Of a DNA stretch of 50,109 nucleotides, positions 5,146 to 44,981 are shown one piece after another; within the stretch, counting starts at the first letter, position 1, and the number at the start of each line of letters is the position of its first letter. The stretch is from a virus. Its lineage: Duplodnaviria; Heunggongvirae; Uroviricota; Caudoviricetes. The DNA lies in the IMG/VR virus record IMGVR_UViG_2740892016_000006, positions 1 through 50,109 of that record. The stretch is one strand, 5' to 3'. Made by a program: the position numbers and the translations under genes. The notes below the pieces were generated by a model. It was not told where the DNA came from. It did not search any database and was given only the letters and a program-made list of their open reading frames with translations.

Positions 5146-6027
5146 ATGAGTCATAATAAAAAGGAATATGCTAAATTTTTCCGTCGCCCCATTTTTTCAT
5201 CCTTAGCAAAAGGTAAGGATATTTCGGATTTATTTGGGAGTTTTGATTCTTACTGCTATGAAACACTGTTTTCAAACAATGATAATAATGAACATGAGAT
5301 TTCACTAAGGGATTTATTTACATCATTATATGATTTTTTGCGTCTGAATTATAGAAATGAATATGTTTATAAGACAGCACTTGTCAATAAAATAATATTC
5401 GGTAAGCACAGCCCAAAAACAAGTTCGTCGTCCATAGAGTTACCAATTAAAAACTCTATAGTGGATGTTGCGGTGTTTAATGGTACGTCTACAGCTTACG
5501 AGATTAAGACAGAGTATGATTCACCAAAAAGGTTGATTACTCAAGCCCCTGATTATTTGGATGTTTTTGATAAAGTGTATATAGTTACACATCCAGAGTA
5601 TGCAAGTAAATATTGTGCTTTAAATCTCCCCAGAGTGGGAGTTATGGTTTTGAATAAAAAAGATCAATTGAGTGTCATTAAGGAGGCAGATTCAAATATT
5701 GATTATATTAAAAGTGACAGCTTGTTTTCAGTTCTTAGAAAGGAAGAGTTCTTAGCTATAATAGAAGATTACACTTCAACTAAAATAAATATGCCTAACG
5801 GATTGGTTTATGAATATTGTAAAGAGATATTCATGCAGATGCCATTAAACATAGCAAATAAATACTTTATCTCTGCTATGAAAAAAAGATGTAACGATAA
5901 AGTTTTTTTGGATTATATTTATTCTCTTCCAGCATGTTTACGTGTTTTAGGTTATGCAACACCATTATCAAGAAAGCAAAAAGAATTCATCATGAATTTG
6001 ATGGATGTAAAAATTAAAATTTGTTGA
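5146..6027 (+). CDS. Hypothetical protein A of AT-rich cargo operon (293 aa); possible PD-(D/E)xK-like nuclease motif
   Basis: Long ORF in visibly AT-rich DNA with Asn/Lys/Ile/Tyr-rich composition; motif IVDVAVF...AYEIKTEYD resembles the D...ExK catalytic strands of restriction-endonuclease-fold nucleases (weak). Confidence 0.7.
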   Translation: MSHNKKEYAKFFRRPIFSSLAKGKDISDLFGSFDSYCYETLFSNNDNNEHEISLRDLFTSLYDFLRLNYRNEYVYKTALVNKIIFGKHSPKTSSSSIELPIKNSIVDVAVFNGTSTAYEIKTEYDSPKRLITQAPDYLDVFDKVYIVTHPEYASKYCALNLPRVGVMVLNKKDQLSVIKEADSNIDYIKSDSLFSVLRKEEFLAIIEDYTSTKINMPNGLVYEYCKEIFMQMPLNIANKYFISAMKKRCNDKVFLDYIYSLPACLRVLGYATPLSRKQKEFIMNLMDVKIKIC

Positions 6028-6048
6028 TATCCTCAGGAGTTGTAAGTT

Positions 6049-6999
6049 ATGTATAGCCCATATTTGTATGCGAGAAGTACAGAGTTATTATGCCTTAGGG
6101 ACCTCGTTGCGAAGGGAGTTAGCCTAAATGGTCTGCTACCAATTTTAGAACCAATTAACGTCAATACGAGAAATTTATTAACATGTTTAAATGTTTGGAA
6201 TTCTGACATAATTGTTATCCTTAATCCTTATCAGGAAGATTTTTCTTCACACAATAACGTCTTAACTTTAAATCAAAATTTATCAAGTGTATTAACAAAT
6301 AAAAATAATATCATCTCTGGATATCTTATTCAGCCCAATACAACGATTAATGATATTAATAATTGGTTGAATGCTAACTTAAATAGACGAGTTGCACTTC
6401 TATATGATAATCCATCATTATCCAACTCTGATATTCAGTTGTTGGCGACAAATCAATTGATTAGTTATCATGTTGTTTTAAATAATAAAATGCTTCCTAA
6501 TCAGTGCGCTCTTCTTCCTTTGTCGAAGTTAATTATTATTAGCGATAACTTTAGAAAGTTAGCAAAAAATGCTGATTATAATGGGCCGGAACTTTTCACG
6601 CACGCACATCAATTCGTGGGACAAAATTACTTAGGATTTGGCGATTATACAATTACTGGCCAGGTACTAGATCTTGGAGGTGGTCAACCTTCTGCTGTTG
6701 CCGCACATTTGGTGTTCAAGAATTTACAAGCGAATACAGTTTGGATTCGTCATTTTGTATCAAGCAACACGCAACGAGGAAGTTCAAATGTTACTGCAAA
6801 ATTTTTAGATGTTTCAGATCAAATTACAAATCTTGTTCCCCAACATCCAACCCAGTTTGGCAGCAACATTGGTCTTAACTATTATTATTACAATAGTCAA
6901 CCAACTGTAAGGCATTTCCCTGGGTTGCCAAAAAACAAACAGTATCAAATTACTCACCATATTTGTTTCATGCTGGATTTAATAGCAGGTCGTATTTAA
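6049..6999 (+). CDS. Hypothetical protein B of AT-rich cargo operon (316 aa)
   Basis: ATG at 6049 with AGGAG 10 nt upstream, 21 nt after gene A stop; Asn/Ser/Leu-rich, no motif I recognise; 3' end overlaps the integrase 3' end (6979-6999). Confidence 0.7.
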   Translation: MYSPYLYARSTELLCLRDLVAKGVSLNGLLPILEPINVNTRNLLTCLNVWNSDIIVILNPYQEDFSSHNNVLTLNQNLSSVLTNKNNIISGYLIQPNTTINDINNWLNANLNRRVALLYDNPSLSNSDIQLLATNQLISYHVVLNNKMLPNQCALLPLSKLIIISDNFRKLAKNADYNGPELFTHAHQFVGQNYLGFGDYTITGQVLDLGGGQPSAVAAHLVFKNLQANTVWIRHFVSSNTQRGSSNVTAKFLDVSDQITNLVPQHPTQFGSNIGLNYYYYNSQPTVRHFPGLPKNKQYQITHHICFMLDLIAGRI

Positions 7000-8154
7000 T
7001 AAGCTAGCGTACCATTCCATCATTACTTGTCGATCTTTAATATATTGCGCATGATTGTAAGTACCTCGAATAGAGTTCTTATCAACATGCGCAAGCTGCA
7101 TTTCAATCCAGGCACTTTCAAACCCATGCTCATGCAAGATGGTGCTCATGGTATGCCTGAAACCGTGACCCGTTAACCGACCGTGATAACCCAGTAGTTT
7201 TATCACTTTGTTGATGCTGGCTTCGCTCATTGGTTTACTGACGTCATTCCGGCCAGGGAAAACGAGGCTGTAATTCCCTGTTATTTCTTGCAGCTTTTTC
7301 AGGATATTGATCGCCTGAGTTGATAACGGAACCAGATGGGGGCGGCGTTTCTTCATCCGTTCTTTGGGGATCTCCCATAAGGCATTATCTAAATCAAACT
7401 CAGCCCATTCCGCTGCACGTAGTTCAATTGTTCGCACGCCTGTTAGCATCAACAGCTGCGTGGCGTATTTGGTAACTAAACTGCCCTGATAGTTATCCAG
7501 AGCATTAACGAACTCGGGCAACTCGCTTTCAGTCAGGAACGGGAAGTGTTGGGTTTTAGGTTTGTTGAGTGCGATAGCTAAATCGGGTGCAAAATTATAC
7601 TTTGCTCTACCAGTGGCAACAGCATAACGAAGCACTTCACCACAGCGGCGGCGGATCTTACTGGTTTGCTCTAGCGCACCTCTTTTCTCTATTTTTTGCA
7701 GGACGGTTAGCAGTTCTAATGGTTCAATCTGCTCAATTGGGCGCTGGCCGATAAAAGGAAAAATATCCTTTTCCATACAATTGAGAACCTCTTTTGCATA
7801 ACCCTCTGACCAGGTGGCTTTTTTCGATGAGTGCCATTCTCTGGCCACAGACTCAAAGCTGTTCTCATGCGCGAACTGCAAAGCAATCTTATCTGCTTTT
7901 CTGGCTTCACTTGGGTTTATCCCGTTGGCTAACATCGAACGCGCTTCATCACGTTTGGTACGTGCCTGTGCCAACGACACATCGCCATATACGCCAAAGG
8001 AAATCATCTTAGGCTTACCTGCAAAGCGATAGCGAAAACGCCAGCCTTTACTGCCCGCTGTGTCGATCAGGAGTGATAGCCCCATACCATCGTTAAGCGT
8101 ATAGGGTTTGTCCTTCGGTTTTGCTCTTTTTATTTGGATGTCAGATAGCAGCAT
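6979..8154 (-). CDS. P4-family tyrosine integrase (about 391 aa; start taken at the second Met of the track ORF)
   Basis: N-terminal KPKDKPY...WRFRYRFAGK arm-binding motif, C-terminal HGFRH...LAHVD...RGTYNHAQY catalytic region; homologous to the IntS-like integrase at 48952-50109. Confidence 0.9.
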   Translation of the reverse strand: MLLSDIQIKRAKPKDKPYTLNDGMGLSLLIDTAGSKGWRFRYRFAGKPKMISFGVYGDVSLAQARTKRDEARSMLANGINPSEARKADKIALQFAHENSFESVAREWHSSKKATWSEGYAKEVLNCMEKDIFPFIGQRPIEQIEPLELLTVLQKIEKRGALEQTSKIRRRCGEVLRYAVATGRAKYNFAPDLAIALNKPKTQHFPFLTESELPEFVNALDNYQGSLVTKYATQLLMLTGVRTIELRAAEWAEFDLDNALWEIPKERMKKRRPHLVPLSTQAINILKKLQEITGNYSLVFPGRNDVSKPMSEASINKVIKLLGYHGRLTGHGFRHTMSTILHEHGFESAWIEMQLAHVDKNSIRGTYNHAQYIKDRQVMMEWYASLLNTTCY

Positions 8155-8314
8155 GTGTATAGAAAAAAGATCGAACTCAGTTATACACAATGTTATACGC
8201 AAAGATGTATAGATTCCATTAGAAATAATGGTACTTTGCTGGACGAGTATAAGGAGATGATATCAGTTAAAACAGTGAGTTATGGAATTAATTGAACTTA
8301 GTGAGAAGTGTTCA

Positions 8315-8329
8315 TGGTGTCCCCTGCAG
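8315..8329 (-). other. Attachment-site core: TGGTGTCCCCTGCAG, reverse complement of the 3' acceptor end of tRNA-Arg (argW) as I recall it
   Basis: Sits between the satellite integrase start (8154) and torI (8403); argW sequence is from memory and must be verified. Confidence 0.5.
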
Positions 8330-8402: not shown

Positions 8403-8603
8403 TTACCCATTGGCGCGGCTTAAGAGCTTATTTTTGAATTCACAATGGTCACGATATAACCATCTTGCTCGTCCGTGGATAACTTTGGCTTTAGGCAGGT
8501 CGCCGGACTTAATCCGGTCATAGATGAAGGTCTTACCGAAGCCAGTATCGGCCATGATGAATTTCAAATCAACCAGGGAATCAGGCTGTAGTTCGTGTTG
8601 CAT
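8403..8603 (-). CDS. torI: TorI-type excisionase / recombination directionality factor (66 aa, AlpA-like)
   Basis: Sequence MQHELQPDSLVDLKFIMADTGFGKTFIYDRIKSGDLPKAKVIHGRARWLYRDHCEFKNKLL matches the recalled E. coli KplE1 TorI. Confidence 0.8.
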   Translation of the reverse strand: MQHELQPDSLVDLKFIMADTGFGKTFIYDRIKSGDLPKAKVIHGRARWLYRDHCEFKNKLLSRANG

Positions 8604-18708: not shown

Positions 18709-19599
18709 ATGGGCGTCGTTAAGTTAGCTGATTACAGGCATAACCCTGTACAACATCAGGAGGCATCCAGTATGGGGTATGTCTCTATACACCGCCAGTT
18801 TATGGACAGCAGGCTCTATAAGGACTCTCAGGCAGTACATCTTTGGCTTCACTTAATCCTCAAGGCTAATCACGAATCTACTGTCGTCAATACGGATATC
18901 GGTCCGATAACTGTTGATCGCGGTCAGATGATAACTGGACGCCCGTCGCTGGTCAGAGAAACATTCATCCCCGACAACAAAGTTCGGAGCTTATTACGGA
19001 CTTTTGAGTCGAAAGGGATGCTTAATATTTCCTCGATGGGGAAGAAATTTAGCCTGTTTACAATCGTTAAATATGACGATTTTCAGGCAAAAAATTGTCC
19101 AACGGTTGTCCAACGGTTGTCCAACGCAAACACCAGTAATGGCGCGGCTCTCAGCGGAGATTGTCCAACGGTTGTCCAACGGTTGTCCATAAACAATAAT
19201 ATAAATAATATCTCTAATACTGACGTATTAGAGAGTGCCACAGCAGACAAAAAGTCTGACAAGAAAAAACCTTCCGTTAGCTGTCAGGATGTTGTCGATG
19301 CTTACCACGAAATCCTTCCTGAAGCGCCAAGAATCCGCGCACTGAATGACAAGCGTAAAAACCAGATCCGAACGTTCTGGCGCAAAGCCGGAGTGATAAC
19401 CCGCCAGCTTGACGGGCATGGGTTCACGATGCAGGACTGGAGAAATTATTTGAGCTACGTAGGAGAAAATTGCCGATGGATGTTCGAAGAGCGCCTAAAC
19501 CATCAACGCGGAACTGTCTGGCACAAAAAGGGATTTGATTTCCTGCTTAACGATAATACCTACCTGAAAGTTCGTGAGGGTGAACACGATGACCGATAA
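18709..19599 (+). CDS. Replication initiation protein (O / P22 gp18 analogue) containing the origin iterons
   Basis: Position after cII, iteron array inside the coding sequence, followed by helicase gene. Confidence 0.7.
   Translation: MGVVKLADYRHNPVQHQEASSMGYVSIHRQFMDSRLYKDSQAVHLWLHLILKANHESTVVNTDIGPITVDRGQMITGRPSLVRETFIPDNKVRSLLRTFESKGMLNISSMGKKFSLFTIVKYDDFQAKNCPTVVQRLSNANTSNGAALSGDCPTVVQRLSINNNINNISNTDVLESATADKKSDKKKPSVSCQDVVDAYHEILPEAPRIRALNDKRKNQIRTFWRKAGVITRQLDGHGFTMQDWRNYLSYVGENCRWMFEERLNHQRGTVWHKKGFDFLLNDNTYLKVREGEHDDR
19096..19189. repeat. Lambdoid origin iterons: two sets of three 11-bp repeats (TTGTCCAACGG) followed by an AT-rich stretch
   Basis: TGTCCAACGGTTGTCCAACGGTTGTCCAACG at 19096-19126 and again at 19162-19189, then AAACAATAATATAAATAATATC. 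Confidence 0.75.
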
Positions 19600-21025
19600 T
19601 TTTTATGCGCCGCCCCATAGCATCGAGGCAGAGCAGGCGGTGATTGGTGGATTGCTTCTGGATGATGACAGCAGTGAGCGCGTCCAGAAAGTTCTGGCGA
19701 TGCTGAAGCCTGATTCATTTTACAGCCGACCACACAAAATCCTTTTCGAAGAAATAACCAGAATGCACCGGGAGCAAAAGCCAGTAGATGGCCTGACGCT
19801 TTTCGATGAACTGGAGCGCAAATCGTTAACGGTGTCTGTTGGCGGTTTTGCTTATATCGCTGAGATCGCAAAGAACACGCCAAGCGCCGCAAACATCGTT
19901 GCCTATGCAATGCAGGTTCGCGAAACCGCAATGGAACGCTACGCCATCAACCGCATGACTGAAGCGACGGAATTGCTCTATTCCCGCAACGGAATGACTG
20001 CAACGCAGAAGTACGAAGCTATTCAGGCGATTTTCACGCAACTGACAGACCATGCAAAAACCGGATCGCGTCGCGGCCTTCGCTCATTTGGCGAGGTCAT
20101 GGAAGACTGGGTTAGCGACCTTGAGAAGCGATTTGACCCGTCAGGCGAACAACGAGGAATGAGCACAGGTATCCCATCGCTGGACAGGATGCTGTCACCG
20201 AAAGGTCTGGTGAAAGGCTCTCTGTTTGTCATTGGCGCTCGCCCTAAGATGGGGAAAACGACGCTATACAGCCAGATGGCAATCAACTGCGCAGTGCATG
20301 AGAAAAAGCCTGCTCTGATGTTCAGCCTTGAAATGCCAGGTGATCAGATACTGGAAAAACTGGTAGGACAGAAGTCAGGTGTTAACCCGAATATTTTTTA
20401 CCTTCCGGCGACAAATGACGCTGATGACGGCTATCAGGGTGATTACGATGGTGACTTCAACAGGGCGATCGAAACAGCAAATCGCTTGAGTGAAATCGAC
20501 CTGCTTTACATCGACGACACGCCGGGATTATCCCTGGCTCAAATCGTCAGCGAAAGCCGTCGAATCAAGCGAGAAAAAGGATGTGTTGGCATGATTCTGG
20601 TCGATTACCTGACACTAATGACCGCTGAGAAGGCCGATCGTAACGACCTTGCTTACGGCATGATCACCAAAGGACTGAAGAACCTTGCCAAAGAGCTTGA
20701 TTGCGTTGTTGTGCTTCTGACGCAGCTTAACCGCGCACTGGAAAGCCGAACCAATAAACGCCCATTACCAAGTGACTCACGAGATACAGGGCAGATTGAA
20801 CAGGATTGCGATTATTGGGTGGGGATCCATCGTGAAGGTGCTTTTGATGACAGTGTTCCACCTGGTGAAACCGAACTAATCCTTCGTCTCAATCGTCATG
20901 GCAATACCGGCACGGTGTATTGCATTCAGGCAAATGGCGCTATTTATGACACAGACCAACAGTCTGCTGAAATGCGCCGACGTGAACGCGAGGAACCGCA
21001 GTCCAAGAAGAAAGGAGGATTCTGA
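19574..21025 (+). CDS. DnaB-family replicative helicase (P22 gp12-like); start may be ATG at 19589
   Basis: N-terminal IEAEQAVIGGLLLD DnaB motif, Walker A GARPKMGKT, RecA-like C-terminal domain. Confidence 0.85.
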   Translation: MRVNTMTDNFYAPPHSIEAEQAVIGGLLLDDDSSERVQKVLAMLKPDSFYSRPHKILFEEITRMHREQKPVDGLTLFDELERKSLTVSVGGFAYIAEIAKNTPSAANIVAYAMQVRETAMERYAINRMTEATELLYSRNGMTATQKYEAIQAIFTQLTDHAKTGSRRGLRSFGEVMEDWVSDLEKRFDPSGEQRGMSTGIPSLDRMLSPKGLVKGSLFVIGARPKMGKTTLYSQMAINCAVHEKKPALMFSLEMPGDQILEKLVGQKSGVNPNIFYLPATNDADDGYQGDYDGDFNRAIETANRLSEIDLLYIDDTPGLSLAQIVSESRRIKREKGCVGMILVDYLTLMTAEKADRNDLAYGMITKGLKNLAKELDCVVVLLTQLNRALESRTNKRPLPSDSRDTGQIEQDCDYWVGIHREGAFDDSVPPGETELILRLNRHGNTGTVYCIQANGAIYDTDQQSAEMRRREREEPQSKKKGGF

Positions 21026-21100
21026 TGACCATCTACATCACTGAGCTAATAACAGGCCTGCTGGTAATCGCAGGCCTTTTTATTTGGGGGAGAGCGAAGT

Positions 21101-21427
21101 GTGGCTGACTGGCAAATTCCAATAATCATTCTTTCCGGAGCTTCGCTGGTTGCTGGCTTTATCCTTCTGAAAAAGCATAAAGACCGTGATCAAAAAGTCG
21201 AAGTTCTCTATGGGTATCCAGCGAACAGCACAACATGGCTGACCATTTACCACTACCGAAAATCAGGCCGCTGGGTATTCGAATGGGATGATCTGTTCGC
21301 TGAAAAGCGACCAAAGTCATGGGGAGACATCAGCGAATGCATGATGTTTGAAGAAAGAAAATTCGGCGCAACCCGAGAAGAGTTTAACGAAGCATGGGCG
21401 CGATTAAGTGAGAGAGGGTATTTGTGA
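21101..21427 (+). CDS. Hypothetical nin-region protein (108 aa), N-terminal hydrophobic segment
   Basis: ORF after helicase. Confidence 0.4.
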   Translation: MADWQIPIIILSGASLVAGFILLKKHKDRDQKVEVLYGYPANSTTWLTIYHYRKSGRWVFEWDDLFAEKRPKSWGDISECMMFEERKFGATREEFNEAWARLSERGYL

Positions 21428-21624
21428 GCAAGTACGAAAAATTAGATCAAAACATTCTTTCAATGCTGAGTGAAAGACCAACACCTGTTTTTGATATCTG
21501 GCTTAAATGGCGGAGCAATGGAATGTATATCGAAACCATCGATCGCCGTATGCAATACCTGAGAAAGAAAGGGCTTGTTGCAAATGTGCGTGGGAAGGGT
21601 TGGGTGAAAATTAACCTGTCATAA
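21424..21624 (+). CDS. Hypothetical nin-region protein (66 aa)
   Basis: ORF with 4-nt overlap to upstream gene. Confidence 0.4.
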   Translation: MSKYEKLDQNILSMLSERPTPVFDIWLKWRSNGMYIETIDRRMQYLRKKGLVANVRGKGWVKINLS

Positions 21625-21635
21625 CGGGGATTGAT

Positions 21636-21908
21636 ATGGACGAATCAAGAAAGCAGTTTGAAGAGTGGTTTAAAACCAAATATCACGTTTCAAGTGACGT
21701 GATGAAGATTATGCACATCAAGGTCGAGATTGCATGGGAGGCGTGGCAGGCATCGCGAGCAGCTATTGAAATAACCGCGCCAAAGTTTATCGACAGCAGA
21801 GAAGCATTATCCAAAGGGTTTACTGTTGATTATTCCAATGGCTTCGGTGATGCAATGGAGGCTTATGAGGAAAACATCCGCGCTGCTGGAATCAAAGTGA
21901 AGGAGTGA
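21636..21908 (+). CDS. Hypothetical nin-region protein (90 aa)
   Basis: ORF. Confidence 0.4.
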   Translation: MDESRKQFEEWFKTKYHVSSDVMKIMHIKVEIAWEAWQASRAAIEITAPKFIDSREALSKGFTVDYSNGFGDAMEAYEENIRAAGIKVKE

Positions 21909-22096
21909 GCATGAGTCGACGAAGTAGCTTTTTGGGGTTTGTAATATTCCTGTCCTGCACTGGTTACATCGTAATCTGGTCAATTTCGAACATTGACCGT
22001 GGCGGGGAATATCTCATTGTAATGTTCTTTCCTTTGTTTCTTGGGTGGTACGCCGCAAGGTTGCTGGAAGAATGGGGTTACAGGCATAAAAAATAA
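21905..22096 (+). CDS. Hypothetical small membrane protein (63 aa)
   Basis: Two hydrophobic segments. Confidence 0.35.
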   Translation: MSMSRRSSFLGFVIFLSCTGYIVIWSISNIDRGGEYLIVMFFPLFLGWYAARLLEEWGYRHKK

Positions 22097-22107
22097 AGGA
22101 GTATTCA

Positions 22108-22518
22108 GTGAAGCAAACAATCTTCCTCCGAACTAAGCAACAACAGCAAGCTGCAATAAATGCCATCCTCGCAACGCCACTCGATAAAGACAAGCCAGTC
22201 ACCATCCGCATTACTGACTACAAGCGCAACCTTGACCAGAACGCAAAATTTCACGCGATGCTGGCGGATATCGCACGTCAGGTTCAATGGTGCGATAAAT
22301 GGTTAAAACCAGAACAATGGAAGGTTTTGTTGATCAGCGGTCATGCAGTGGCTACAAAGCAGGAAGCTGATGTTTTGCCCGGCCTTGAAGGCGAATACGT
22401 CAACATTCGCGAAAGTAGCGCGCAGATGAGTGTGAAGCGTATGGCAAGTCTGATTGAGTACACGACAGCATGGGCTATTGGTCAGGGTGTCAGATTTACC
22501 GACAGGAGGTACGAATGA
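22108..22518 (+). CDS. ninB: NinB recombination protein
   Basis: Resembles recalled lambda NinB (...[22 protein letters not shown]...). Confidence 0.75.
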
Positions 22519-22691
22519 GACGACAGCGACGAAGTTTCACCGACATCATCTGTGAAAACTGCAAATACCTTCCAACGAAACGCTCCAGAAATAAACGCAA
22601 GCCAATCCCAAAAGAATCTGACGTAAAAACCTTCAACTACACGGCTCACCTGTGGGATATCCGGTGGCTAAGACATCGTGCGAGGAAATGA
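22515..22691 (+). CDS. ninE: NinE-like protein (start at internal Met overlapping ninB stop)
   Basis: [52 protein letters not shown] matches recalled lambda NinE. Confidence 0.65.
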
Positions 22692-23041
22692 CAATGGATT
22701 ATTCACAGTTAAGTGATTTTGAAATTAACAAGCGAGTATTTAAAGCGATAGTTGGGGCAAAACCATTAGGTTATCCGCACAACGCAGATGGACGGTCTGT
22801 CGGCAATGAATCAAATGGTAATTATCGATGGTACGACTACTGCAATAATCCTGAAGATGCAGAGCCGATTATCGTAGAGAACAGAATTGGCATTATTCCA
22901 GCGCCAGAAAATGGATTATGGAAGGCAGCGCATAGAAAAGTTGGCAGTGATAGTACCCCATATCATATGACTCAAGATGAAAACCCACTCCGCGCCGCCA
23001 TGATTGTCTTTCTCATGATGCAGGACGCCAATAATGCTTAG
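22691..23041 (+). CDS. Hypothetical nin-region protein (DUF2591-like?)
   Basis: ORF; start taken at MTMDYSQL. Confidence 0.45.
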   Translation, partial: TMDYSQLSDFEINKRVFKAIVGAKPLGYPHNADGRSVGNESNGNYRWYDYCNNPEDAEPIIVENRIGIIPAPENGLWKAAHRKVGSDSTPYHMTQDENPLRAAMIVFLMMQDANNA

Positions 23042-23210
23042 CCCATCCCAATCCCTCCAATACCAGAAAGAAAGCGTCGAGCGGGCTTTAACGTGCGCTA
23101 ACTGCGGTCAGAAGCTGCATGTGCTGGAAGTTCACGTGTGTGAGCACTGCTGCGCAGAACTGATGAGCGATCCGAATAGCTTAATGTACGAGGAAGAAGA
23201 CGATGAGTGA
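23034..23210 (+). CDS. ninF: NinF-like small protein (58 aa; not in ORF track)
   Basis: Hand translation MLSPSQSLQYQKESVERALTCANCGQKLHVLEVHVCEHCCAELMSDPNS... matches recalled lambda NinF. Confidence 0.6.
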   Translation: MLSPSQSLQYQKESVERALTCANCGQKLHVLEVHVCEHCCAELMSDPNSLMYEEEDDE

Positions 23211-23415
23211 TTACCTGAAATGGTATCTCTGCCACCGCTGGTTAATTAAGTATGCTGTAAAAGACTGGATGACAGCGGATGCCAACAAGCTTAAGCAAAG
23301 AAAAGACTATTACTACGCCAGAATGAAGGAAAACTACTGCTCAATTCGCACTCGCATATTTATTAAAAAAGACCTTCAGTCAATTCTTCAATTGCGAGGG
23401 AAGGTAAATGGCTAA
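23203..23415 (+). CDS. Hypothetical nin-region protein (70 aa)
   Basis: ORF. Confidence 0.4.
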   Translation: MSDYLKWYLCHRWLIKYAVKDWMTADANKLKQRKDYYYARMKENYCSIRTRIFIKKDLQSILQLRGKVNG

Positions 23416-23698
23416 CCTACGCAAAGAAGCGCGCGGCAGAGAATGCCAGGTACGTATTTACGGTGTATGCAATGGCAATCCTGAAACTACAGTTCTGGCA
23501 CATTACCGGATGGCTGGAATTTGCGGAACGGGAATGAAGCCTGACGACCTGATCGGTGCATGGGCTTGTAGCGCGTGTCACGATGAAATCGACCGACGCA
23601 CCCATAATCTCGACAACAAAGACGCCAGACTTTACCACCTCGAAGGTGTGATCAGGACGCAGGCGATACTGCTGAAGGAGGGGAAGATTAAGTCATGA
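23408..23698 (+). CDS. Cys-rich nin-region protein (DUF1364-like)
   Basis: Multiple Cys/His (CQVRIYGVCNG...CSACHDEIDRRTH) upstream of rusA. Confidence 0.5.
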   Translation: MANLRKEARGRECQVRIYGVCNGNPETTVLAHYRMAGICGTGMKPDDLIGAWACSACHDEIDRRTHNLDNKDARLYHLEGVIRTQAILLKEGKIKS

Positions 23699-24090
23699 AA
23701 AACTACCGAATAAAATTGCCGTGGCCTCCTTCAAACAACCGATATTGGCGACACTCAAGAGGGATCCACTACATCAGCGACTGGGGGAAGAGATACCGAA
23801 AAGAAGTAATCGAATTAATCCAGCAACAACAGCTAGACATCAAAATCACACCTCGCATCAGAATAACCATCCACGCAGCACCTCCCGATAACCGCAAACG
23901 AGATTTGGACAATCTGCCCAAAGCCGTTTTTGACGCACTCACCAGTGCGGGCTTCTGGCTGGATGACGGTCAGATAGACGATATGCGCATCAAGCGCTAT
24001 CAGGCGATTAAAGGTGGAATGCTTGTGTTGGTTGTGACTGAAACATGCGGGAGTTTGCCAATGATTACAGAGCTACTGGAGGCCGCATGA
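23695..24090 (+). CDS. rusA: RusA Holliday-junction resolvase
   Basis: LPWPPSNNRYWRH...RDLDNLPKAVFDALTSAGFWLDD matches RusA family. Confidence 0.85.
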   Translation: MKNYRIKLPWPPSNNRYWRHSRGIHYISDWGKRYRKEVIELIQQQQLDIKITPRIRITIHAAPPDNRKRDLDNLPKAVFDALTSAGFWLDDGQIDDMRIKRYQAIKGGMLVLVVTETCGSLPMITELLEAA

Positions 24091-24293
24091 CGTTCTCAGT
24101 AAAAACCATTCCAGACATGCTCGTTGAAGCATACGGAAACCAGACAGAAGTAGCACGCAGACTGAAATGTAGTCGCGGCACGGTAAGAAAATACGTTGAT
24201 GATAAAGACGGGAAAATGCACGCCATCGTCAACGACGTTCTCATGGTTCATCGCGGATGGAGTGAAAGAGATGCGCTATTACGAAAAAATTGA
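24087..24293 (+). CDS. ninH: NinH-like protein
   Basis: [39 protein letters not shown] matches recalled lambda NinH. Confidence 0.7.
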
Positions 24294-24936
24294 TGGCAGC
24301 AAATACCGAAATATTTGGGTAGTTGGCGACCTGCACGGTTGCTACACGAACCTGATGAAAAAACTGGAGACGATAGGATTCGACACCAAAAAAGACCTGC
24401 TTATCTCGGTTGGCGATTTGGTTGATCGCGGTACAGAGAACGTCGAATGTATGGAATTAATCACATTCCCCTGGTTCAGAGCTGTACGTGGAAACCATGA
24501 GCAAATGATGATTGATGGCTTATCAGAGCGTGGAAACGTTAATCACTGGCTGCTTAATGGCGGTGGCTGGTTCTTTAATCTCGATTACGACAAAGAAATT
24601 CTGGCTAAAGCTCTTGCCCATAAAGCAGATGAACTTCCGTTAATCATCGAACTGGTGAGCAAAGATAAAAAATACGTCATCTGCCACGCCGATTATCCCT
24701 GTGATGAATACGAGTTCGGAAAGCCAGTTGATCATCAGCAGATAATCTGGAACCGCGAACGAATCAGCAACTCACAAGACGGGATCGTGAAAGAAATCAA
24801 AGGCGCGGACACGTTCATCTTTGGTCATACGCCAGCAGTGAAACCACTTAAATTTGCCAACCAAATGTATATCGATACCGGCGCAGTGTTCTACGGAAAC
24901 CTCACATTGATTCAGGTACAGGGAGAAGGCGCATGA
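24271..24936 (+). CDS. Ser/Thr protein phosphatase (lambda NinI / PP-lambda type)
   Basis: GDLHG, GDLVDRG, GNHE calcineurin-like phosphoesterase motifs; start taken at MRYYEKIDG. Confidence 0.85.
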
Positions 24937-25556
24937 GACTCGAAAGCGTAGCTAAATTTCATTCGCCAAAAAGCCCGATGATGAGTGACTCACCACGGGC
25001 CACGGCTTCTGACTCTCTTTCCGGTACTGATGTGATGGCTGCTATGGGGATGGCGCAATCACAAGCCGGATTCGGAATGGCTGCATTCTGCGGTAAGCAT
25101 GAACTCAGCCAGAACGACAAACAAAAGGCTATCAACTATCTGATGCAATTTGCACACAAGGTATCGGGGAAATACCGTGGTGTGGCAAAGCTTGAAGGAA
25201 ATACTAAGGCAAAGGTGCTGCAAGTGCTCGCAACATTCGCTTATGCGGATTATTGCCGTAGTGCCGCGACACCGGGTGCAAGATGCAGAGATTGCCACGG
25301 TACAGGTCGTGCGGTTGATATAGCAAAAACAGAGCAGTGGGGGAGAGTTGTTGAGAAAGAGTGCGGAAGATGCAAAGGCGTCGGCTATTCAAGGATGCCA
25401 GCAAGCGCTGCATATCGCGCTGTGACGATGCTAATCCCAAACCTCACCCAACCCACATGGTCACGCACTGTTAAGCCGCTGTATGACGCTCTGGTGGCGC
25501 AATGCCACAAGGAAGAGTCAATTGCAGACAATATTTTGAATGCAGTCACACGTTAG
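24933..25556 (+). CDS. Q: Q late antiterminator (lambda Q type)
   Basis: Zinc-binding CRDCHGTGR...CGRCKGVGY and overall match to recalled lambda Q. Confidence 0.85.
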
Positions 25557-25770
25557 CAGCATGATTGCCACGGATGGCAACATATTAACGGCATGATATT
25601 GACTTTTTGAATAAAGTTGGGTAAATTTGACCCAACGATGGGTTAATTCGCTCGTTGTGGTAGTGAGATAAAAAGAGGCGGCGCTTACTACCGATTCCGC
25701 CTAGTTGGTCACTTCGACGTATCGTCTGGAACTCCAACCATCGCAGGCTGAGAGGTCTGTAAAATGCAAT

Positions 25771-25827
25771 CCCGAAACAGTTCGCAGGTAATAGTTAGAG
25801 CCTGCATAACGGTTTCGGGATTTTTTA
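25771..25827 (+). terminator. tR'-like terminator (end of 6S-type late leader RNA)
   Basis: CCCGAAAC...GGTTTCGGG hairpin followed by TTTTTTAT, as in lambda tR'. Confidence 0.7.
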
Positions 25828-26224
25828 TATCTGTGTAACAGGTAAGAGCATTCTCCCTTATGGGGCTTGGCTTAAATGCATTGAGTGCTCTTTCCGTTGT
25901 GCTGAATTAAGCGAATACCGGAAGCAGAACCGGATCACCAAATGCGTACAGGCGTCATCGCCGCCCAGCAACAGCACAACCCAAACTGAGCCGTAGCCAC
26001 TGGCTATCCTGAATTCATCAGTGATAGTTATGCTGCGGCCTTCTACACATGACCTTCGTGAAAGCGGGTGGCATGAGGTTGCGCTAACAACCTCATGCCG
26101 TTTTGCCCGTGCATATCGGTCACGAACAAATCTGATTACTAAACACAGTAGCCTGGATTTGTTCTATCAGTAATCGACCTTATTCCTAATTAAATAGAGC
26201 AAATCCCCTTATTGGGGGTAAGAC

Positions 26225-26548
26225 ATGAAGATGCCAGAAAAACATGACCTGTTAGCCGCCATTCTCGCGGCAAAGGAACAAGGCATCGGGGCAATCCTTG
26301 CGTTTGCAATGGCGTACCTTCGCGGCAGATATAATGGCGGTGCGTTTACAAAAACAGTAATCGACGCAACGATGTGCGCCATTATCGCCTGGTTCATTCG
26401 TGACCTTCTCGACTTCGCCGGACTAAGTAGCAATCTTGCTTATATAACGAGCGTGTTCATCGGCTACATCGGTACTGACTCGATTGGTTCGCTTATCAAA
26501 CGCTTCGCTGCTAAAAAAGCCGGAGTAGAAGATGGTGGAAATCAATAA
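26225..26548 (+). CDS. S: Holin (lambda S type, dual-start MKM)
   Basis: Matches recalled lambda S107 sequence. Confidence 0.9.
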
Positions 26549-27008
26549 TCAACGTAAGGCGTTCCTCGATATGCTGGCGTGGTCAGAGGGAACTGATAAC
26601 GGACGTCAGAAAACCAGAAATCATGGTTATGACGTCATTGTTGGCGGAGAGCTATTCACTGATTACTCCGATCACCCTCGCAAACTTGTCACGCTAAACC
26701 CAAAACTCAAATCAACAGCCGCCGGGCGCTACCAGCTTCTTTCCCGTTGGTGGGATGCCTATCGCAAGCAGCTTGGCATGAAAGACTTCTCTCCGAAAAG
26801 CCAGGACGCTGTTGCACTGCAGCAGATTAAGGAGCGTGGCGCTTTACCGATGATTGATCGCGGTGATATCCGTCAGGCTATCGACCGTTGCAGCAATATC
26901 TGGGCTTCACTGCCGGGCGCTGGTTACGGTCAGTTCGAGCATAAGGCTGACAGCCTGATTGCAAAATTCAAAGAAGCCGGCGGAACGGTAAGAGAGATTG
27001 AGGCATGA
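26532..27008 (+). CDS. R: Endolysin (lambda R lytic transglycosylase)
   Basis: Matches recalled lambda R. Confidence 0.9.
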
Positions 27009-27442
27009 GCAGAGTCACCGCGATTATCTCCGCTCTTGTTATCTGCATCATCGTCTGCCTGTCATGGGCTGTTAATCATTACCGTGATAACGCCATCGCC
27101 TACAAAGCCCAGCGCGATAAGGCCGCATCCACAGTCGCTGACATGCAGAAGCGTCAACGTGATGTAGCAGAACTCGACGCCAGATACACAAAGGAGCTTG
27201 CTGATGCTAACGCGACTATCGAAAGTCTCCGTGCTGATGTTTCTGCTGGGCGTAAGCGCCTGCAAGTCGCCGCCACCTGTGCAAAGTCAACGACCGGAGC
27301 CAGCAGCATGGGCGATGGAGAAAGCCCAAGACTTACAGCAGATGCTGAACTCAATTATTACCGTCTCCGAAGTGGAATCGACAGGATAACCGCGCAGGTT
27401 AACTACCTGCAGGAATACATCAGGACGCAATGCCTTCGATGA
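27005..27442 (+). CDS. Rz: Rz spanin (inner-membrane subunit)
   Basis: N-terminal TM segment plus coiled coil, lambda Rz-like N-terminus. Confidence 0.85.
27198..27389 (+). CDS. Rz1: Rz1 spanin lipoprotein embedded in Rz in +1 frame (true start may be internal)
   Basis: Lipobox LGVSAC and proline-rich KSPPPVQ segment inside Rz. Confidence 0.6.
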
Positions 27443-27786
27443 TAGCGATAATTCTACTCATCATCCTTCACATCTGGCTCTGTAGACAGGGTGATGATCA
27501 CTTCTGGAGTGAATCCAGATTAAACATCTCATTGCTGATGCTTGATATTGAGCATCTGGCGCGCGGTAAGGGGCTGCGTTGAGATAAGAGCCAGTAATTA
27601 CAAACACCAGGATTTAGCCTCGCATTCGCGGGGCTTTTTTACATCTGCAGTAAACCGCGCATCGCAGCGCGTAACAATCCCGAGTCTTTCAGAAAGCTGA
27701 GCCTGAGAATTGCCGTATATGGTGGCGACCATCTCGGGGCGGCTTTTCTGTGCGAACAGGCTCATCTTTCTAAAAGGTAAGACGCT

Positions 27787-28308
27787 ATGAATATCGTTCC
27801 ACTAAATTACAAAGGCGAACCTATCCGCTTCAATACTGATGGCTGGATTAATGCCACTGATATTGCAAAACGTTTCGGGAAGCGTCTGGATCACTGGTTG
27901 TCCAACGCTGAAACTCTCGAATACGTTAGAGCTCTGGATGAGGTTTATTCAGGTGAACCATCGAAAATTCTACATACCCGTGATTCCGGGTATGTAAAAA
28001 CAAGCAAGGCACGAAAGGACAGGGGTGGCGGAACATGGCTGCATCCAAAGTTATCAGTTGCCTTTGCAAGATGGTGCGATCCGAAATTCTCCGTATGGTG
28101 CGACCTGCACATTGATAGTCTGCTTCGCGGTGAACTGACTGAGCAGCAGAAATATGAGCAAGCATGTCGCATTCGCGATGACCGGAAATCAAAAGCCAGC
28201 AATGGGGCAAGAGAGATGGCTCGCTGGCGATGGGATAAGCCGGTTATTGAAGCAAATGTCGAGTACTGGCGCGAGCAACTGCAGTTGACTCTCGATATTG
28301 CGTGCTGA
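27787..28308 (+). CDS. KilA-N domain protein
   Basis: N-terminal YKGEPIRFNTDGWINATDIAKRFGKRLDHWL resembles KilA-N/Bro-N-type domains. Confidence 0.65.
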   Translation: MNIVPLNYKGEPIRFNTDGWINATDIAKRFGKRLDHWLSNAETLEYVRALDEVYSGEPSKILHTRDSGYVKTSKARKDRGGGTWLHPKLSVAFARWCDPKFSVWCDLHIDSLLRGELTEQQKYEQACRIRDDRKSKASNGAREMARWRWDKPVIEANVEYWREQLQLTLDIAC

Positions 28309-28665
28309 TGGCAAACGCAAAACTGCGTTATCGGAAAAATCAAAGCATTACGAGAACTGAGCAACGGCTATCCATTACAAAGCCCATCAACGGGTGGGCT
28401 TGATAATGAAACCGGAATTTATTCTAGGTAACCAGTTACGGCAGTACCACGAAGCAACCCAAGCCAGTAAGTGGGGGAAATAACACTGGCAGCCACTGAA
28501 AGATGAAACTCCAGCCTTATGGCAAAAAGATTCTTTGTGGTGGCGGACTGATGGAAAGACATCGGTTATTGCAGAGGCCATTCAATGAATGGTCTCGACA
28601 ATGGCTTATACCCTACACGGGATAACTTAACTGATATCCCTTTTAACGGATAAACGGAGCCAACA

Positions 28666-28908
28666 ATGGCAGAGATTATTCCCATGACTGAAGAACAGAA
28701 ATTCCAGTTAGAGATTTACAAGCTGGTCATGAACCAGAACGCAGCCGCAGAGGAAGCATTTCAATTCATCGGCACTGACGCGTTGAAGCTTGAGCTATTC
28801 AAAATTCACTTCCAGTCAGGCGGCGCTAATTCAGATATCACGATCCGCACATTCGAAGCGGTGCGTAAATCGAAGGAAGCGTTAGACCTGTTCACCACCG
28901 GAGCATGA
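28666..28908 (+). CDS. Hypothetical protein upstream of terminase (80 aa)
   Basis: ORF. Confidence 0.4.
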   Translation: MAEIIPMTEEQKFQLEIYKLVMNQNAAAEEAFQFIGTDALKLELFKIHFQSGGANSDITIRTFEAVRKSKEALDLFTTGA

Positions 28909-29106
28909 TGTGAGCCGCGTAATCAATTTGGGTAAGGAGAAGAAATTTCCAATTACTCAAGAGCTATACGAGCGGCTGGAAAGCGTCATCCATGATTACG
29001 ATGGCGAAATCAGTTTATGCGAGGCGATTGGCACACTCGAATTGCTGAAGCAGTCACTGATTGAAGGCGCGAAAGAGTCATCAACCTGAAATAACGATTA
29101 AGTGAG

Positions 29107-36160: not shown

Positions 36161-37579
36161 ATGCCGATTCAGCAACTTCCGCTTATGAAAGGTGTCGGCA
36201 AAGACTTCCGAAACGCCGACTATATCGACTATCTGCCAGTGAATATGCTGGCTACACCCAAAGAAATCCTCAACAGCAGCGGATATCTTCGCTCATTCCC
36301 GGGCATTGCCAAACACTCTGATGTAAACGGCGTATCGCGCGGCGTCGAGTACAACATGGCGCAGAATGCTGTTTATCGTGTGTGTGGCGGCAAGCTCTAC
36401 AAAGGCGAAAGCGAAGTCGGTGATGTCGCCGGAAGTGGTCGCGTATCAATGGCGCATGGTCGGACATCACAGGCGGTAGGCGTTAATGGTCAACTGGTCG
36501 AGTATCTCTATGATGGCACGGCTAAAACCGTCTCAAACTGGCCTACAGACAGCGGATTCACACAGTACGAGTTAGGTTCAGTTCGCGACATTACGCGCTT
36601 ACGTGGGCGTTATGCGTGGTCAAAAGACGGCACTGATTCATGGTTTATCACTGACCTTGAAGATGAATCGCATCCTGACCGTTACAGCGCACAATATCGT
36701 GCCGAGTCTCAGCCGGACGGCATCATCGGTATCGGAACATGGCGAGACTTCATCGTCTGCTTTGGTTCATCGACGATTGAATATTTTTCCCTGACTGGGG
36801 CAACCACCGTTGGTGCTGCTTTGTATGTCGCCCAGCCATCGTTAATGGTGCAGAAAGGCATTGCCGGAACTTACTGCAAAACGCCGTTTGCTGATTCCTA
36901 TGCGTTTATCAGCAATCCGGCAACAGGTGCGCCGTCTGTATACATCATCGGCTCCGGTCAGGTATCACCAATCGCCAGCGCGAGCATTGAGAAAATTCTC
37001 CGCTCCTACACTGCTGATGAACTGGCTGATGGTGTAATGGAATCGCTGCGATTTGATGCGCATGAGTTGCTGATTATCCATCTTCCGCGCCATGTACTGG
37101 TGTACGACGCATCTTCAAGCGCCAATGGTCCGCAATGGTGTGTACTGAAAACAGGCCTGGATGACGATGTGTACCGCGCTATCGACTTCATTTACGAAGG
37201 CAATCAGATAACGTGCGGAGATAAGCTGGAATCCGTGACCGGGAAATTGCAGTTCGACATTAGCAGCCAGTACGACAAGCAACAGGAACACCTGCTGTTT
37301 ACTCCGTTGTTCAAAGCGGATAACGCCAGGGTGTTTGACTTTGAGGTTGAATCGTCAACTGGCGTTGCGCAGTACGCCGACCGCCTTTTTCTCTCTGCAA
37401 CCACTGACGGCATCAATTACGGACGTGAGCAGATGATTGAGCAGAATGAACCGTTCGTTTACGACAAACGCGTTTTGTGGAAGCGAGTCGGGCGCATCAG
37501 GAAAAATGTTGGCTTCAAATTGCGCGTTATCACGAAGTCACCTGTCACTCTGTCTGGCTGCCAGATAAGGATTGAGTAA
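36161..37579 (+). CDS. Tail accessory protein (P22 gp10-like, 472 aa)
   Basis: Size and position. Confidence 0.75.
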
Positions 37580-38532
37580 TGGCTGATTCGAATCTCAATG
37601 AGCCAGTAATCATCCAGGCTACGCGGCTCGATACATCAGTTCTTCCACGCAATATCTTCTCGCAGTCGTATCTGCTTTACGTTATCGCACAGGGCACTGA
37701 TGTTGGTAACGTGGCTAACAAGGCCAACGAAGCAGGGAAGGGGGCTTATGATGCACAGGTGAAGAATGATGAGCAGGATGTCACCCTTGCAGACCATGAA
37801 TCCAGAATTGAAGCTGCTGAAGCAACTCTCATCAATCATGAACATAGAATTGCAGCAGCGGAAAGCACTCTTGCAGATCATGAAACAAGGATTACGGCTG
37901 CCGAAACAGAGCTGGCTGATCACGAGACGCGAATTGCTGCCAATGAATCTGAGTTAGCAAACCATGATGCGCGAATAACTCAGAATACAACCGATATCGA
38001 CGCACTTGATACCAGGCTCACAGCGGCAGAGGGAAGTATTCCGACACTACAAAACACAGTTGGTGATCACTCAACAAGAATATCTGCGCTTGAGTATGCC
38101 ACCACGCGCAAGAAATCAGAGGTTGTTTACTCAGGAGTATCGGTAACCATCCCGACAGCGCCGACCAACCTTGTTAGCCTGCTGAAAACGCTCACGCCGT
38201 CATCCGGCACGTTGGCACCATTCTTCGACACCGTTAACAACAAGATGGTTGTGTTCAACGAGAACAAAACCTTGTTCTTCAAGCTGTCGATCGTCGGGAC
38301 GTGGCCCAGCGGAACCGCAAACAGGTCAATGCAGCTAACCTTTTCCAGCTCTGTTCCTGACACACTGGTAAGCAGTCGCAACTCGGCGACAACAACCGAT
38401 AACATCCTGTTAGCTACGTTCTTCAGCGTGGATAAAGACGGCTTTCTTGCCACAAATGGCAGTGCGTTAACCATCCAGTCAAATGGGGCGGCGTTTACTG
38501 CCACAACCATCAAGATAATCGCGGAGCAGTGA
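37579..38532 (+). CDS. Tail needle protein (gp26-like trimeric coiled coil with C-terminal knob)
   Basis: HE(T/S)RI(A/T)AAE heptad repeats followed by a C-terminal domain. Confidence 0.7.
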
Positions 38533-42969: not shown

Positions 42970-43359
42970 CTAACATTTTCTTTTTACTTTTCCAACAAAA
43001 GCTTTGGTTGAATCCATATTTCCATAACCGGAAATGGTTTTTGACATTAAAACTGTTCCAGTAGGATGTATTACCCATGAGTCGATAACGCGTTGAGTTT
43101 CGCCATTCGCGCCGATTCCTATGATGGAGTTTTTAGACAATGCTTTGTAAGCCATGCCGCCTGCATCTGTCCCAGAATATGTGATGCTGGCATCTTCACC
43201 GCTTGTCTTAATGATGAATGTTCCACTAAAACCATCTTCTTCCGGATGGAAATTATTTCGTTCTGAATAGCTTATTCCGCGCATATCTCCAACGACCCAG
43301 CACTCTGCTGTAGCCCCAAAAGATATGAATAAGAACATAGCAGCAAGAAATTGCTTCAC
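42970..43359 (-). CDS. Secreted hypothetical protein (129 aa) in the sieA/moron position
   Basis: N-terminal signal peptide MKQFLAAMFLFISFGATA; opposite strand to structural genes. Confidence 0.55.
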   Translation of the reverse strand: MKQFLAAMFLFISFGATAECWVVGDMRGISYSERNNFHPEEDGFSGTFIIKTSGEDASITYSGTDAGGMAYKALSKNSIIGIGANGETQRVIDSWVIHPTGTVLMSKTISGYGNMDSTKAFVGKVKRKC

Positions 43360-43727
43360 ACCAACCTCCTTAGTTTTGAGCAGAATACCAGATGATACTG
43401 TATTGGTGGAGTGGTGTGTGAAAACGTGTCAACGACAAACCATCCACAACTTGGACGAATGATTTAGCAAAAAGTGCTATTTTGGGTGTTTAGTGTCATA
43501 GAAAAGTGAATAGCTCACTTTTCAACATTGCATGAAACTTGCAGGAAATGTGACATTACCTTATAGGTAACTTCGGCGAAAATGCAGTAAATGTGAAACG
43601 TAATGATTTAAACGTGTCGAGAAAGTGGTTGTAAGTTAGCCTCTGAAGGATTGATGACAGCTTTGTTATGGTATTAAATGCAACTTGACACAGTTGTATA
43701 CATAGCTGCGGCTATCAAGATGGAGGT

Positions 43728-44177
43728 ATGTTTATGCTCACTTGTTTTGATGTCGCCGACTACTTCTTGGCGCATTGCGATGAAGAAAGTGGCGACATTA
43801 TCTCTAACCTAAAAATTCAGAAGTTGACGTATTATGCCCAAGGGTTTTCTCTGGTTCTTCTGGGTAAGCCGCTATTTAATGAGAAAATTGAAGCCTGGAT
43901 GCATGGGCCAGTAGTTCCTGAATTGTATCGTAAATATAGGGACTGTGGTAACGGAGCTTTACCTGCGCCAGAAAACTTTGACGCTAAAAAATTCAGTGAA
44001 GATGAAATTGAATTGCTGGATGAGGTGTATAAAGTTTATGGTCAGTTTTCTGCCTGGAAACTGCGCAATATGACTCACGAAGAGCAGCCATGGAAAGATG
44101 CTTACATTGAGGGTGCGGTTAGCCAAGAAATCACACTTGATTCTATGAAAGGTTTTTTCAAAACGTTAATTAACTGA
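43728..44177 (+). CDS. Panacea-domain (DUF4065, SocA/GepA-like) protein, putative antitoxin
   Basis: N-terminal DVADYFLAHC...NLKIQKLTYYAQG matches the recalled DUF4065 signature. Confidence 0.6.
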   Translation: MFMLTCFDVADYFLAHCDEESGDIISNLKIQKLTYYAQGFSLVLLGKPLFNEKIEAWMHGPVVPELYRKYRDCGNGALPAPENFDAKKFSEDEIELLDEVYKVYGQFSAWKLRNMTHEEQPWKDAYIEGAVSQEITLDSMKGFFKTLIN

Positions 44178-44182
44178 CGTGT

Positions 44183-44605
44183 ATGTCTAGAGTTAAGGGA
44201 AGAATAAAACAGAGGGATAAAGAGAGCTCTGCTACTGTTGGCCTCTCTATCCATCACGAATCTCATGATGTAGACAAAAGTCCGCCTGTATTTTCTCTTA
44301 GATACCTACAAAAGGGGTATTGCCTAGATTGCTGCCAAAAGCATGAAAAGGCAGCATTTGCAGATAGGCTGTTCAGGTTAAGTCAGATGTCATGGGATGA
44401 GATACGAAAATCTGATAAACACGGGCTTGGGACGGAAAAAATTGCCAGAAACGCGATAAAGGCTCCGATTCCTAAGCATGTTACTCAAGATGTGGATTTC
44501 ATTGCGTTCAGATTTTGCTCTAAGGCACCTATGGTTGGTTATAAGATAGGAGCCACTTTTTATGTCTTATGGCTCGACAGGGAGTTCAAGCTATACAAGC
44601 ACTAA
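44183..44605 (+). CDS. Hypothetical partner of the Panacea-domain gene (140 aa), candidate toxin/effector
   Basis: Starts 6 nt after the Panacea gene stop; followed by strong terminator; no family recognised. Confidence 0.55.
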   Translation: MSRVKGRIKQRDKESSATVGLSIHHESHDVDKSPPVFSLRYLQKGYCLDCCQKHEKAAFADRLFRLSQMSWDEIRKSDKHGLGTEKIARNAIKAPIPKHVTQDVDFIAFRFCSKAPMVGYKIGATFYVLWLDREFKLYKH

Positions 44606-44610
44606 TAAAA

Positions 44611-44632
44611 CCCACCGTCAGGTGGGTTTTTT
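44611..44632. terminator. Bidirectional rho-independent terminator between the Panacea operon and mnt
   Basis: CCCACC-GTCA-GGTGGG hairpin with flanking T-tract. Confidence 0.8.
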
Positions 44633-44872: not shown

Positions 44873-44981
44873 ACTTACACCGTGATAATCACATTGATAT
44901 CACAGTGTATTCAAAAAAATTTTGACTTGATATATTCACGGTGATATGTTTGTGATTCACAATAACTCACATGGTGACAAT

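Follow-up and report, generated by a model that had tools for sequence, protein, structure and literature searches.

A patchwork of lambdoid cassettes in the nin, late-control and lysis region of a P22-like prophage

Introduction

Was the region carrying the nin, late-control and lysis genes of a P22-like prophage taken over from phage lambda as one module, or is it itself put together from smaller pieces? The question is raised by positions 22108-27442 of a viral DNA stretch of 50,109 nucleotides (nt) (IMG/VR record IMGVR_UViG_2740892016_000006), referred to throughout, at its full length, as the window. An earlier sequence-only reading of this DNA had described the interval as a lambda-type nin/Q/lysis block lying inside a P22-type genome. 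That lambdoid phages are modular mosaics has stood in textbooks since the late 1970s, and mosaicism of this same gene block is documented in HK620, Sf6, Sf101, IME10 and phage L. We find that the interval is very probably the nin, late-control and lysis part of a P22-like prophage at argW, and that it is a patchwork of interchangeable lambdoid cassettes in which a lambda-type block occupies 24079-27100. The phenomenon is thus already known; what is unrecorded is the particular combination of cassettes only, an expected outcome for lambdoid prophages.

Results

Segment map of the interval

Mapped in bins of 100 nt against lambda, P22, HK630, IME10, JEP4 and ST64T, the interval falls into about eight segments with different nearest relatives: ninB (HK620/HK630), ninE, a variant ninX, ninF, orf70, ybcO-rusA, a lambda-type run from ninH through ninI, Q, pR', tR' and S to R, and a P22-type Rz 3' end with Rz1 (Table 1). 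Most of the junctions lie at gene boundaries or within short conserved stretches. A single phage explaining the whole interval was not found among 50,697 phage records, the best of which covers 71% of it, and no single record covers more than 52% of either 6900-28400 or 28400-50109. The uniform similarity to one reference phage that would have spoken against mosaicism is therefore not what the window presents. None of 5,426 complete Escherichia coli genomes covers 80% or more of 20000-29000 (maximum 70%), and of 64 IMG/VR contig stretches, compared because each carries the variant ninX or the junction between ninF and orf70, the best-covering locus reaches 72% of the interval. The exact cassette combination (HK620-type ninB, rare ninX middle, orf70, ybcO-rusA, lambda-type ninH to R, P22-type Rz/Rz1) is absent from the phage records, IMG/VR stretches and E. 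coli genomes searched.

A lambda-type block from ninH to the start of Rz

The genomes of lambda (NC_001416) and P22 (NC_002371) were compared with the window by blastn and tblastn. Positions 24079-27100 are collinear with lambda 43032-46057, with 96.3% nt identity over 3026 alignment columns and 8 gaps, and contain ninH, ninI, Q, pR'/qut, the 6S/tR' region, the orf-64 region, S, R and the first 100 nt or so of Rz. Since lambda covers 65% of the interval and only 11% of 8330-50109, the part that belongs to the prophage, the enrichment is real; the lambda-like nin/Q/lysis block proposed earlier is confirmed for 24079-27100 and fails for the rest of 22108-27442.

The gene products and the control sites of the block tell the same story. 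NinH is 100% identical to its lambda counterpart in amino acids (aa) and 98.6% in nt, against 72% aa identity to P22; NinI is 96% identical to lambda NinI and has no tblastn match in P22; R is 97% identical to lambda R and likewise has no tblastn match in the P22 genome. Q and S are each 99% identical to the lambda proteins, but since they are also 97% and 90% identical to P22 gp23 and gp13, respectively, these two hardly distinguish lambda from P22. The translation of S begins MKMPEK, giving the dual start Met1-Lys2-Met3, and R carries a WSEG motif containing the equivalent of lambda Glu19, which we take to be the catalytic residue. In the non-coding part, alignment to lambda and P22 places three substitutions relative to lambda in pR'/qut, two of them, at spacer positions, matching P22 instead. 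The tR' hairpin columns contain no mismatch to lambda and have the long lambda-type form (fold of -26.9 kcal/mol, z = -4.97), whereas the pR'-tR' region of P22 is different and much shorter. A scan of the interval with Rfam at gathering thresholds gave no match. The lambda-like character attributed earlier to NinH, NinI, Q, S, R and the tR' hairpin is thereby upheld.

Over its length the block differs from lambda by 103 mismatches and by a replaced patch at about 25850-25890. This patch, in the lambda orf-64 region downstream of tR', is the sole spot of the block that is not collinear; some 40 nt have been replaced, with a net length difference of 8 nt, and IME10 too differs from the window here, at 25853-25974.

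A hybrid Rz

The lambda-type block ends inside Rz. In a four-way alignment, the first 46 nt or so of the gene are lambda-like and, from about 27120 on, it is the P22 allele, including the 21-nt deletion that P22 has relative to lambda; in the crossover zone between them, lambda and P22 are almost identical to each other. Rz is 88% aa identical to P22 gp15 and 59% to lambda Rz, and the corresponding values for the embedded Rz1 are 95% and 45%, so that lambda spanin alleles, which the sequence-only reading had assigned here, are replaced by those of P22. Between Rz and the packaging genes (27430-28308) lie a 50-aa open reading frame (ORF; phrog_11822) and a gene for a KilA-N domain protein of 173 aa; in this position after the lysis genes, HK620 has the KilA-N gene hkbK and P22 has rha.

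The nin genes upstream of the block

NinB, NinE and NinF had also been read as lambda-like. NinB is 38% aa identical to lambda NinB and likewise 38% to P22 NinB by tblastn, and its gene is the HK620/HK630 allele (97.8% nt identity to HK630, 95.7% to HK620). NinE (97% aa identity to P22 versus 90% to lambda) and NinF (96% versus 87%) are nearer to P22; both genes are alleles shared among lambdoids and stand only slightly nearer to P22. Within the nin region, then, only ninH and ninI are of lambda type.

The earlier description also overlooked ninX, orf70, ybcO and rusA at 22688-24090. NinX belongs to a P22-family gene (50% aa identity to P22 NinX) and has no tblastn match in NC_001416. The ends of ninX are P22-like, and its middle (about 22738-22976) is a rarer variant, a 44-mer from which has exact matches in only four IMG/VR contigs and none in a collection with one genome per species. 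For orf70, tblastn found no match in lambda or P22, and the ninF/orf70 junction is present in at least 60 IMG/VR contigs. Nor did rusA give a tblastn match in either genome; the ybcO-rusA region is 97% identical in nt to phage JEP4 over 23407-24935 and about 89% to ST64T over 23403-24252. Together, orf70 and ybcO-rusA (23203-24090) occupy the place that ninG has in lambda and P22, and occur in neither reference. The full lambda gene content of the region (ninB-C-D-E-F-G-H-I) is accordingly not present here, ninC, ninD and ninG being absent and ninX, orf70, ybcO and rusA additional. Between the helicase gene and ninB, at 21101-22096, there are four short ORFs, of 108, 66, 90 and 63 aa; three fall into PHROGs of unknown function, one has no family, and none has a match in lambda or P22.

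Junctions

The block starts at a conserved sequence, GGAGGCCGCATGAC, which spans the ribosome-binding site and start codon of ninH and is common to lambda, P22 and JEP4 despite their different upstream genes (ninG, ninY and rusA, respectively). It ends in the conserved 5' part of Rz. In the 64 IMG/VR stretches, breakpoints cluster at about 22500-22521, 22688-22737, 23205, 23699, 24079, 24920-24935, 25641-25656 and 27120.

Replication, virion and immI modules

The remainder of the genome had been described as P22-like for replication, morphogenesis, ejection and immI. For replication this holds for the architecture only, an initiator gene bearing iterons followed by that of a DnaB-type helicase. 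The iterons, TTGTCCAACGG, are present in 3+3 copies inside the initiator gene at about 19094-19190. At the sequence level, P22 gp18 matches the initiator with 23% identity over 146 aa of the initiator's C-terminal half (E = 0.002), lambda O does not match it, and the helicase has 31% aa identity to P22 gp12. Identity to HK620 is higher, at 66% aa between the initiator and HK620 O and at 98% in nt for the 3' end of the initiator gene together with the helicase gene. By these identities the replication module is of HK620 type, not P22 type. The initiator gene (18709-19599) is itself mosaic: about 125 aa at its C-terminal end hardly differ from HK620 O, whereas the DNA-binding N-terminal part is identical at about half of its positions. 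The switch between the two lies at the iteron cluster and suggests that origin specificity was changed and the helicase-contact domain kept.

Morphogenesis and ejection are P22-like, as had been proposed. By tblastn, the virion and ejection genes (2, 1, 8, 5, 4, 10, 26, 14, 7, 20, 16 and 9) are collinear with P22, at 43-94% aa identity (portal 78%, scaffold 85%, coat 73%, gp10 92%, gp14 91%, gp7 94%, gp16 75%), and the nearest records belong to Lederbergvirus. The small terminase is of Sf6 type. The tailspike shares solely the head-binding domain with P22, and its receptor-binding body is therefore of a different type. The P22-like immI is also present, with Mnt and Arc of the Arc fold, an antirepressor with Bro-N and P22_AR_C domains, and the sar RNA. 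Judged by these comparisons, the genome outside the interval is P22-like for virion, ejection and immI only; replication, the integrase/attP layout, the small terminase, the needle knob and the tailspike body are of HK620/Sf6 type or other.

Between ejection gene 16 and immI, where P22 carries sieA, the prophage has a gene for a SocA/Panacea-domain protein (PF13274, 2e-24) followed by one for a 140-aa protein (43728-44605). The latter has weak matches only (MAG6450 family, 2e-5; C-terminus of PADLOC NsnC, 2e-7). The two genes may form a Panacea-type toxin-antitoxin or defence pair.

Window layout and prophage boundaries

The window holds a P4-like satellite (1-8329) in tandem with the P22-like prophage, at a common argW attachment (att) site. 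Positions 1-8329 have an exact chromosomal counterpart (100% identity) in E. coli Z247 and in about 420 other complete genomes. Besides the features in Table 1, the satellite carries a gene for an Icd-like protein, an ogr/Delta-like gene and sce7726/sce7725; its end lies 15 nt inside the 3' end of tRNA-Arg, adjoining yfdC. The spot between the ogr-like gene and the integrase of such a satellite is a usual place for accessory or defence cargo, and the pair of sce7726- and sce7725-family genes is found there (5146-6999, guanine-cytosine content 31-34%); the sce7726 protein matches the PADLOC model 'cll' (1e-18).

The att core at 8315-8329 (attL) is the 3' end of tRNA-Arg, and 8314-8329 coincide with the annotated HK620 attP core; lambdoid prophage sequence begins at 8330. 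The excisionase gene lies at the left end of the prophage and the integrase gene at the right end because attP is of HK620 type, between int and xis. As the window ends at the integrase start codon (50109), attR and the intact tRNA-Arg lie outside it. The integrase at 6979-8202 was considered as the prophage's own and rejected, as it belongs to the satellite that is 100% identical to the Z247 segment; the two integrases are 45% identical in aa. The closest phage records are those of P22-like E. coli and Shigella phages and other lambdoids (IME10, phiv205-1, HK633, Sf6, Kapi1 and others). On the evidence of the att core and the integrase region, the host element is identified as a P22-like podovirus prophage (Lederbergvirus, HK620/IME10/Sf6 group) integrated at argW of E. 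coli.

Table 1. Coordinates of features in the window, by position.
Feature	Position	Strand	Evidence or remark
Satellite isrK and C4 antisense RNAs	88-333		
Satellite DUF927 primase	1224-3911		
Satellite tyrosine integrase	6979-8202		
xis (TorI-like excisionase)	8403-8603	minus	phrog_66
ninB (Orf-family recombination mediator)	22108-22518	+	Pfam NinB, 4e-54
ninE	22515-22691	+	Pfam NinE, 4e-43
ninX (DUF2591)	22688-23041	+	Pfam Phage_P22_NinX, 3e-18
ninF	23034-23210	+	Pfam NinF
orf70 (70-aa ORF, no assigned function)	23203-23415	+	phrog_3973, 6e-52
ybcO-like putative nuclease	23408-23698	+	Pfam YbcO, 2e-44
rusA Holliday-junction resolvase	23695-24090	+	Pfam RusA, 6e-19
ninH, lambda allele	24087-24293	+	Pfam Phage_NinH, 2e-44
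ninI Ser/Thr phosphatase (lambda PP)	24271-24936	+	Pfam Metallophos, 6e-17
Q late antiterminator	24933-25556	+	Pfam Antiterm (PF03589), 1.5e-57
pR' late promoter with overlapping qut, directly downstream of Q	25599-25627	+	promoter scan, TTGACT-17-TAAATT
tR' intrinsic terminator	25768-25830	+	hairpin 25768-25822, then U-tract; ends a 6S RNA of about 194 nt
S holin/antiholin, class I	26225-26548	+	Pfam Phage_holin_3_1 (PF05106)
R endolysin, lambda transglycosylase type	26532-27008	+	phrog_90 endolysin, 1e-62
Rz i-spanin, hybrid	27005-27442	+	Pfam Rz
Rz crossover zone, lambda type to P22 type	27050-27120	+	alignment: lambda before column ~50, P22 after ~130
Rz1 o-spanin lipoprotein, embedded in Rz, P22 allele	27204-27389	+	phrog_3198 Rz-like spanin, 8e-29
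Tail needle	37579-38532		317 aa; Sf6-type knob (P22 gp26 without such a knob)
sar RNA	45329-45395	minus	RF00262, 65.7 bits
Tailspike	46377-48758		793 aa; N-terminal P22 head-binding domain (PF09008)
Prophage integrase	48952-50109	minus	inside a stretch 96% nt identical to HK620

Discussion

Our comparisons partly support the sequence-only reading of this locus. All the genes it named are present where it placed them, as judged by Pfam and phrog matches, and the mosaicism is real, but the module boundaries that it drew and several of its allele assignments are wrong. The interval is best explained as a patchwork of cassettes, such as all lambdoid phages are, whose source would have been the gene pool that the lambdoids of enterobacteria have in common. 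Lambdoid phages or prophages residing in the same host could have exchanged the cassettes by homologous or homeologous recombination at conserved linkers, with functional combinations then kept by selection; an alternative route would be illegitimate recombination, after which selection would have favoured an intact order of genes. By analogy with lambda, to which the cassette is nearly identical, Q would load at qut in pR' and allow RNA polymerase to read through tR' into a single late operon, in which the lambda-type S and R would be followed by the P22-type Rz/Rz1 and then by the P22-type virion genes. Since it acts on its own promoter and terminator, whatever lies downstream, such a control cassette can combine freely with any virion module.

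Several points weigh against this explanation as it stands. The recombination mechanism is read from the positions of the junctions and points to no particular donor. What the Q/lysis cassette does in this prophage is predicted from its near-identity to lambda. At the orf70-flanking junction, 23205, no shared homology was detected across the breakpoint in six reference phages, and illegitimate recombination followed by selection is therefore equally possible there. It is also conceivable, though we consider it rather doubtful, that junctions which recur, for example those at the 5' end of Rz and at the ninH ribosome-binding site and start codon, are specific exchange points that enable module swapping and not just the survivors of random recombination; this idea is suggested by the recurrence of breakpoints at similar coordinates in many relatives.

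Would a simpler history account for the same data? That the whole of 22108-27442 came into a P22-type genome as a single lambda-type module is what the coverage by lambda, so much higher in the interval than over the prophage part, and the 96-100% aa identity of ninH, ninI, Q, S and R products to lambda would lead one to expect. The per-segment comparison has already refuted it, since NinB is far from its lambda counterpart, three lambda nin genes are absent, ninX, orf70, ybcO and rusA are not lambda genes, and Rz and Rz1 are much closer to P22 than to lambda; we regard this reading as very improbable. Just as improbable is a recent and direct acquisition of the 3-kb block from phage lambda itself. 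The collinear match does extend to the non-coding pR'/6S/tR' sequences, as such a transfer would predict, but the 103 mismatches and the replaced patch speak against it, as do the equal or better matches, at about 97%, to IME10, HK446, HK544, mEp234 and Sf101, and the hybrid Rz junction in common with IME10. On nt identity lambda is not the nearest relative of the block, IME10 being nearer (about 97.4% against 96.3%), and because the lambda-type block is already found in IME10, JEP4 and Sf101, it would have been inherited within the E. coli P22-like group and not have come fresh from lambda. An assembly chimera of two co-resident prophages, a thought encouraged by E. coli genomes often having several lambdoid prophages with near-identical Q/lysis regions (a median of two matching places per genome), is hardly credible, as the junctions recur in independently sequenced isolates and contigs (rusA/ninH in JEP4, the Rz hybrid in IME10, ninF/orf70 in 60 IMG/VR contigs) and every reading frame is unbroken, with ATGA overlaps of the usual kind.

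The patchwork of lambdoid cassettes thus remains the preferred explanation. Its practical value lies in a clean segment map, correct prophage boundaries and the reassignment of the replication module to the HK620 type; beyond correct annotation, the finding matters little. As exchange here often involves no more than one gene, or part of one, the labels "lambda-type" and "P22-type" are unfit to be given by eye to intervals of several genes.

Comparison with known phages

IME10 (NC_019501), a Lederbergvirus of E. coli, is P22-like, has the same ninH-ninI-Q-pR'-S-R block and the same lambda/P22 hybrid Rz (97.4% nt identity over 24079-25852 and 96.9% over 25975-27435), and is the best single match to the virion half of the window. 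It is without the prophage's ninB allele, ninX middle, orf70 and ybcO-rusA, differs at 25853-25974, and reaches a coverage of only about 46% in either half of the window from 6900 on. With JEP4, the prophage has the rusA/ninH junction in common.

With HK620 (NC_002730), the type phage among the P22-like phages of E. coli, the prophage has in common the attP core, the int-attP-xis layout, the integrase region (96% nt identity), the ninB allele, the ybcO-like gene HkbD and lambda-like Q, S and R; the HK620 record already annotates Q, S and R as lambda-like, and HkbD and rus occupy the same positions. Unlike the prophage, HK620 is without ninX and ninI and has roi; it differs in its rus, ninH and Rz alleles and in the intergenic region between pR' and S, and at the nt level its coat/portal region resembles Sf6/APSE, not P22. 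Its coverage of the prophage part amounts to 33%.

The corresponding nin-Q-SRRz region of lambda (NC_001416, 40644-46427) differs in having ninC, ninD and ninG, in being without ninX, orf70, ybcO and rusA, and in its ninB, Rz and Rz1 alleles; lambda bor is absent from the prophage, and everything outside the block differs from lambda. P22 resembles the prophage in ninE, ninX, ninF, Q (gp23), the Rz/Rz1 allele, orf80/orf59c and immI with the sar RNA. It differs in carrying the T4-type lysozyme gp19 in place of lambda R, in being without ninI, in having ninG, ninY and ninZ where the prophage has ybcO-rusA, and in its replication proteins, small terminase, integrase/attP, tailspike body and needle knob.

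The same mosaic make-up of nin and lysis regions has been published for two P22-like phages, Sf101 and L. The genome of Sf101 is highly mosaic and has ninE/F/G/H/I in common with siphoviral lambdoids such as HK544 and mEp234 (PMC4159516). The nin region of phage L is likewise mosaic, tightly packed and ATGA-overlapping, with rusA and divergent ninB and ninX alleles, and its holin and endolysin assort independently of Rz/Rz1 (PMC8022706). All that we have seen in the prophage fits these descriptions of Sf101 and phage L.

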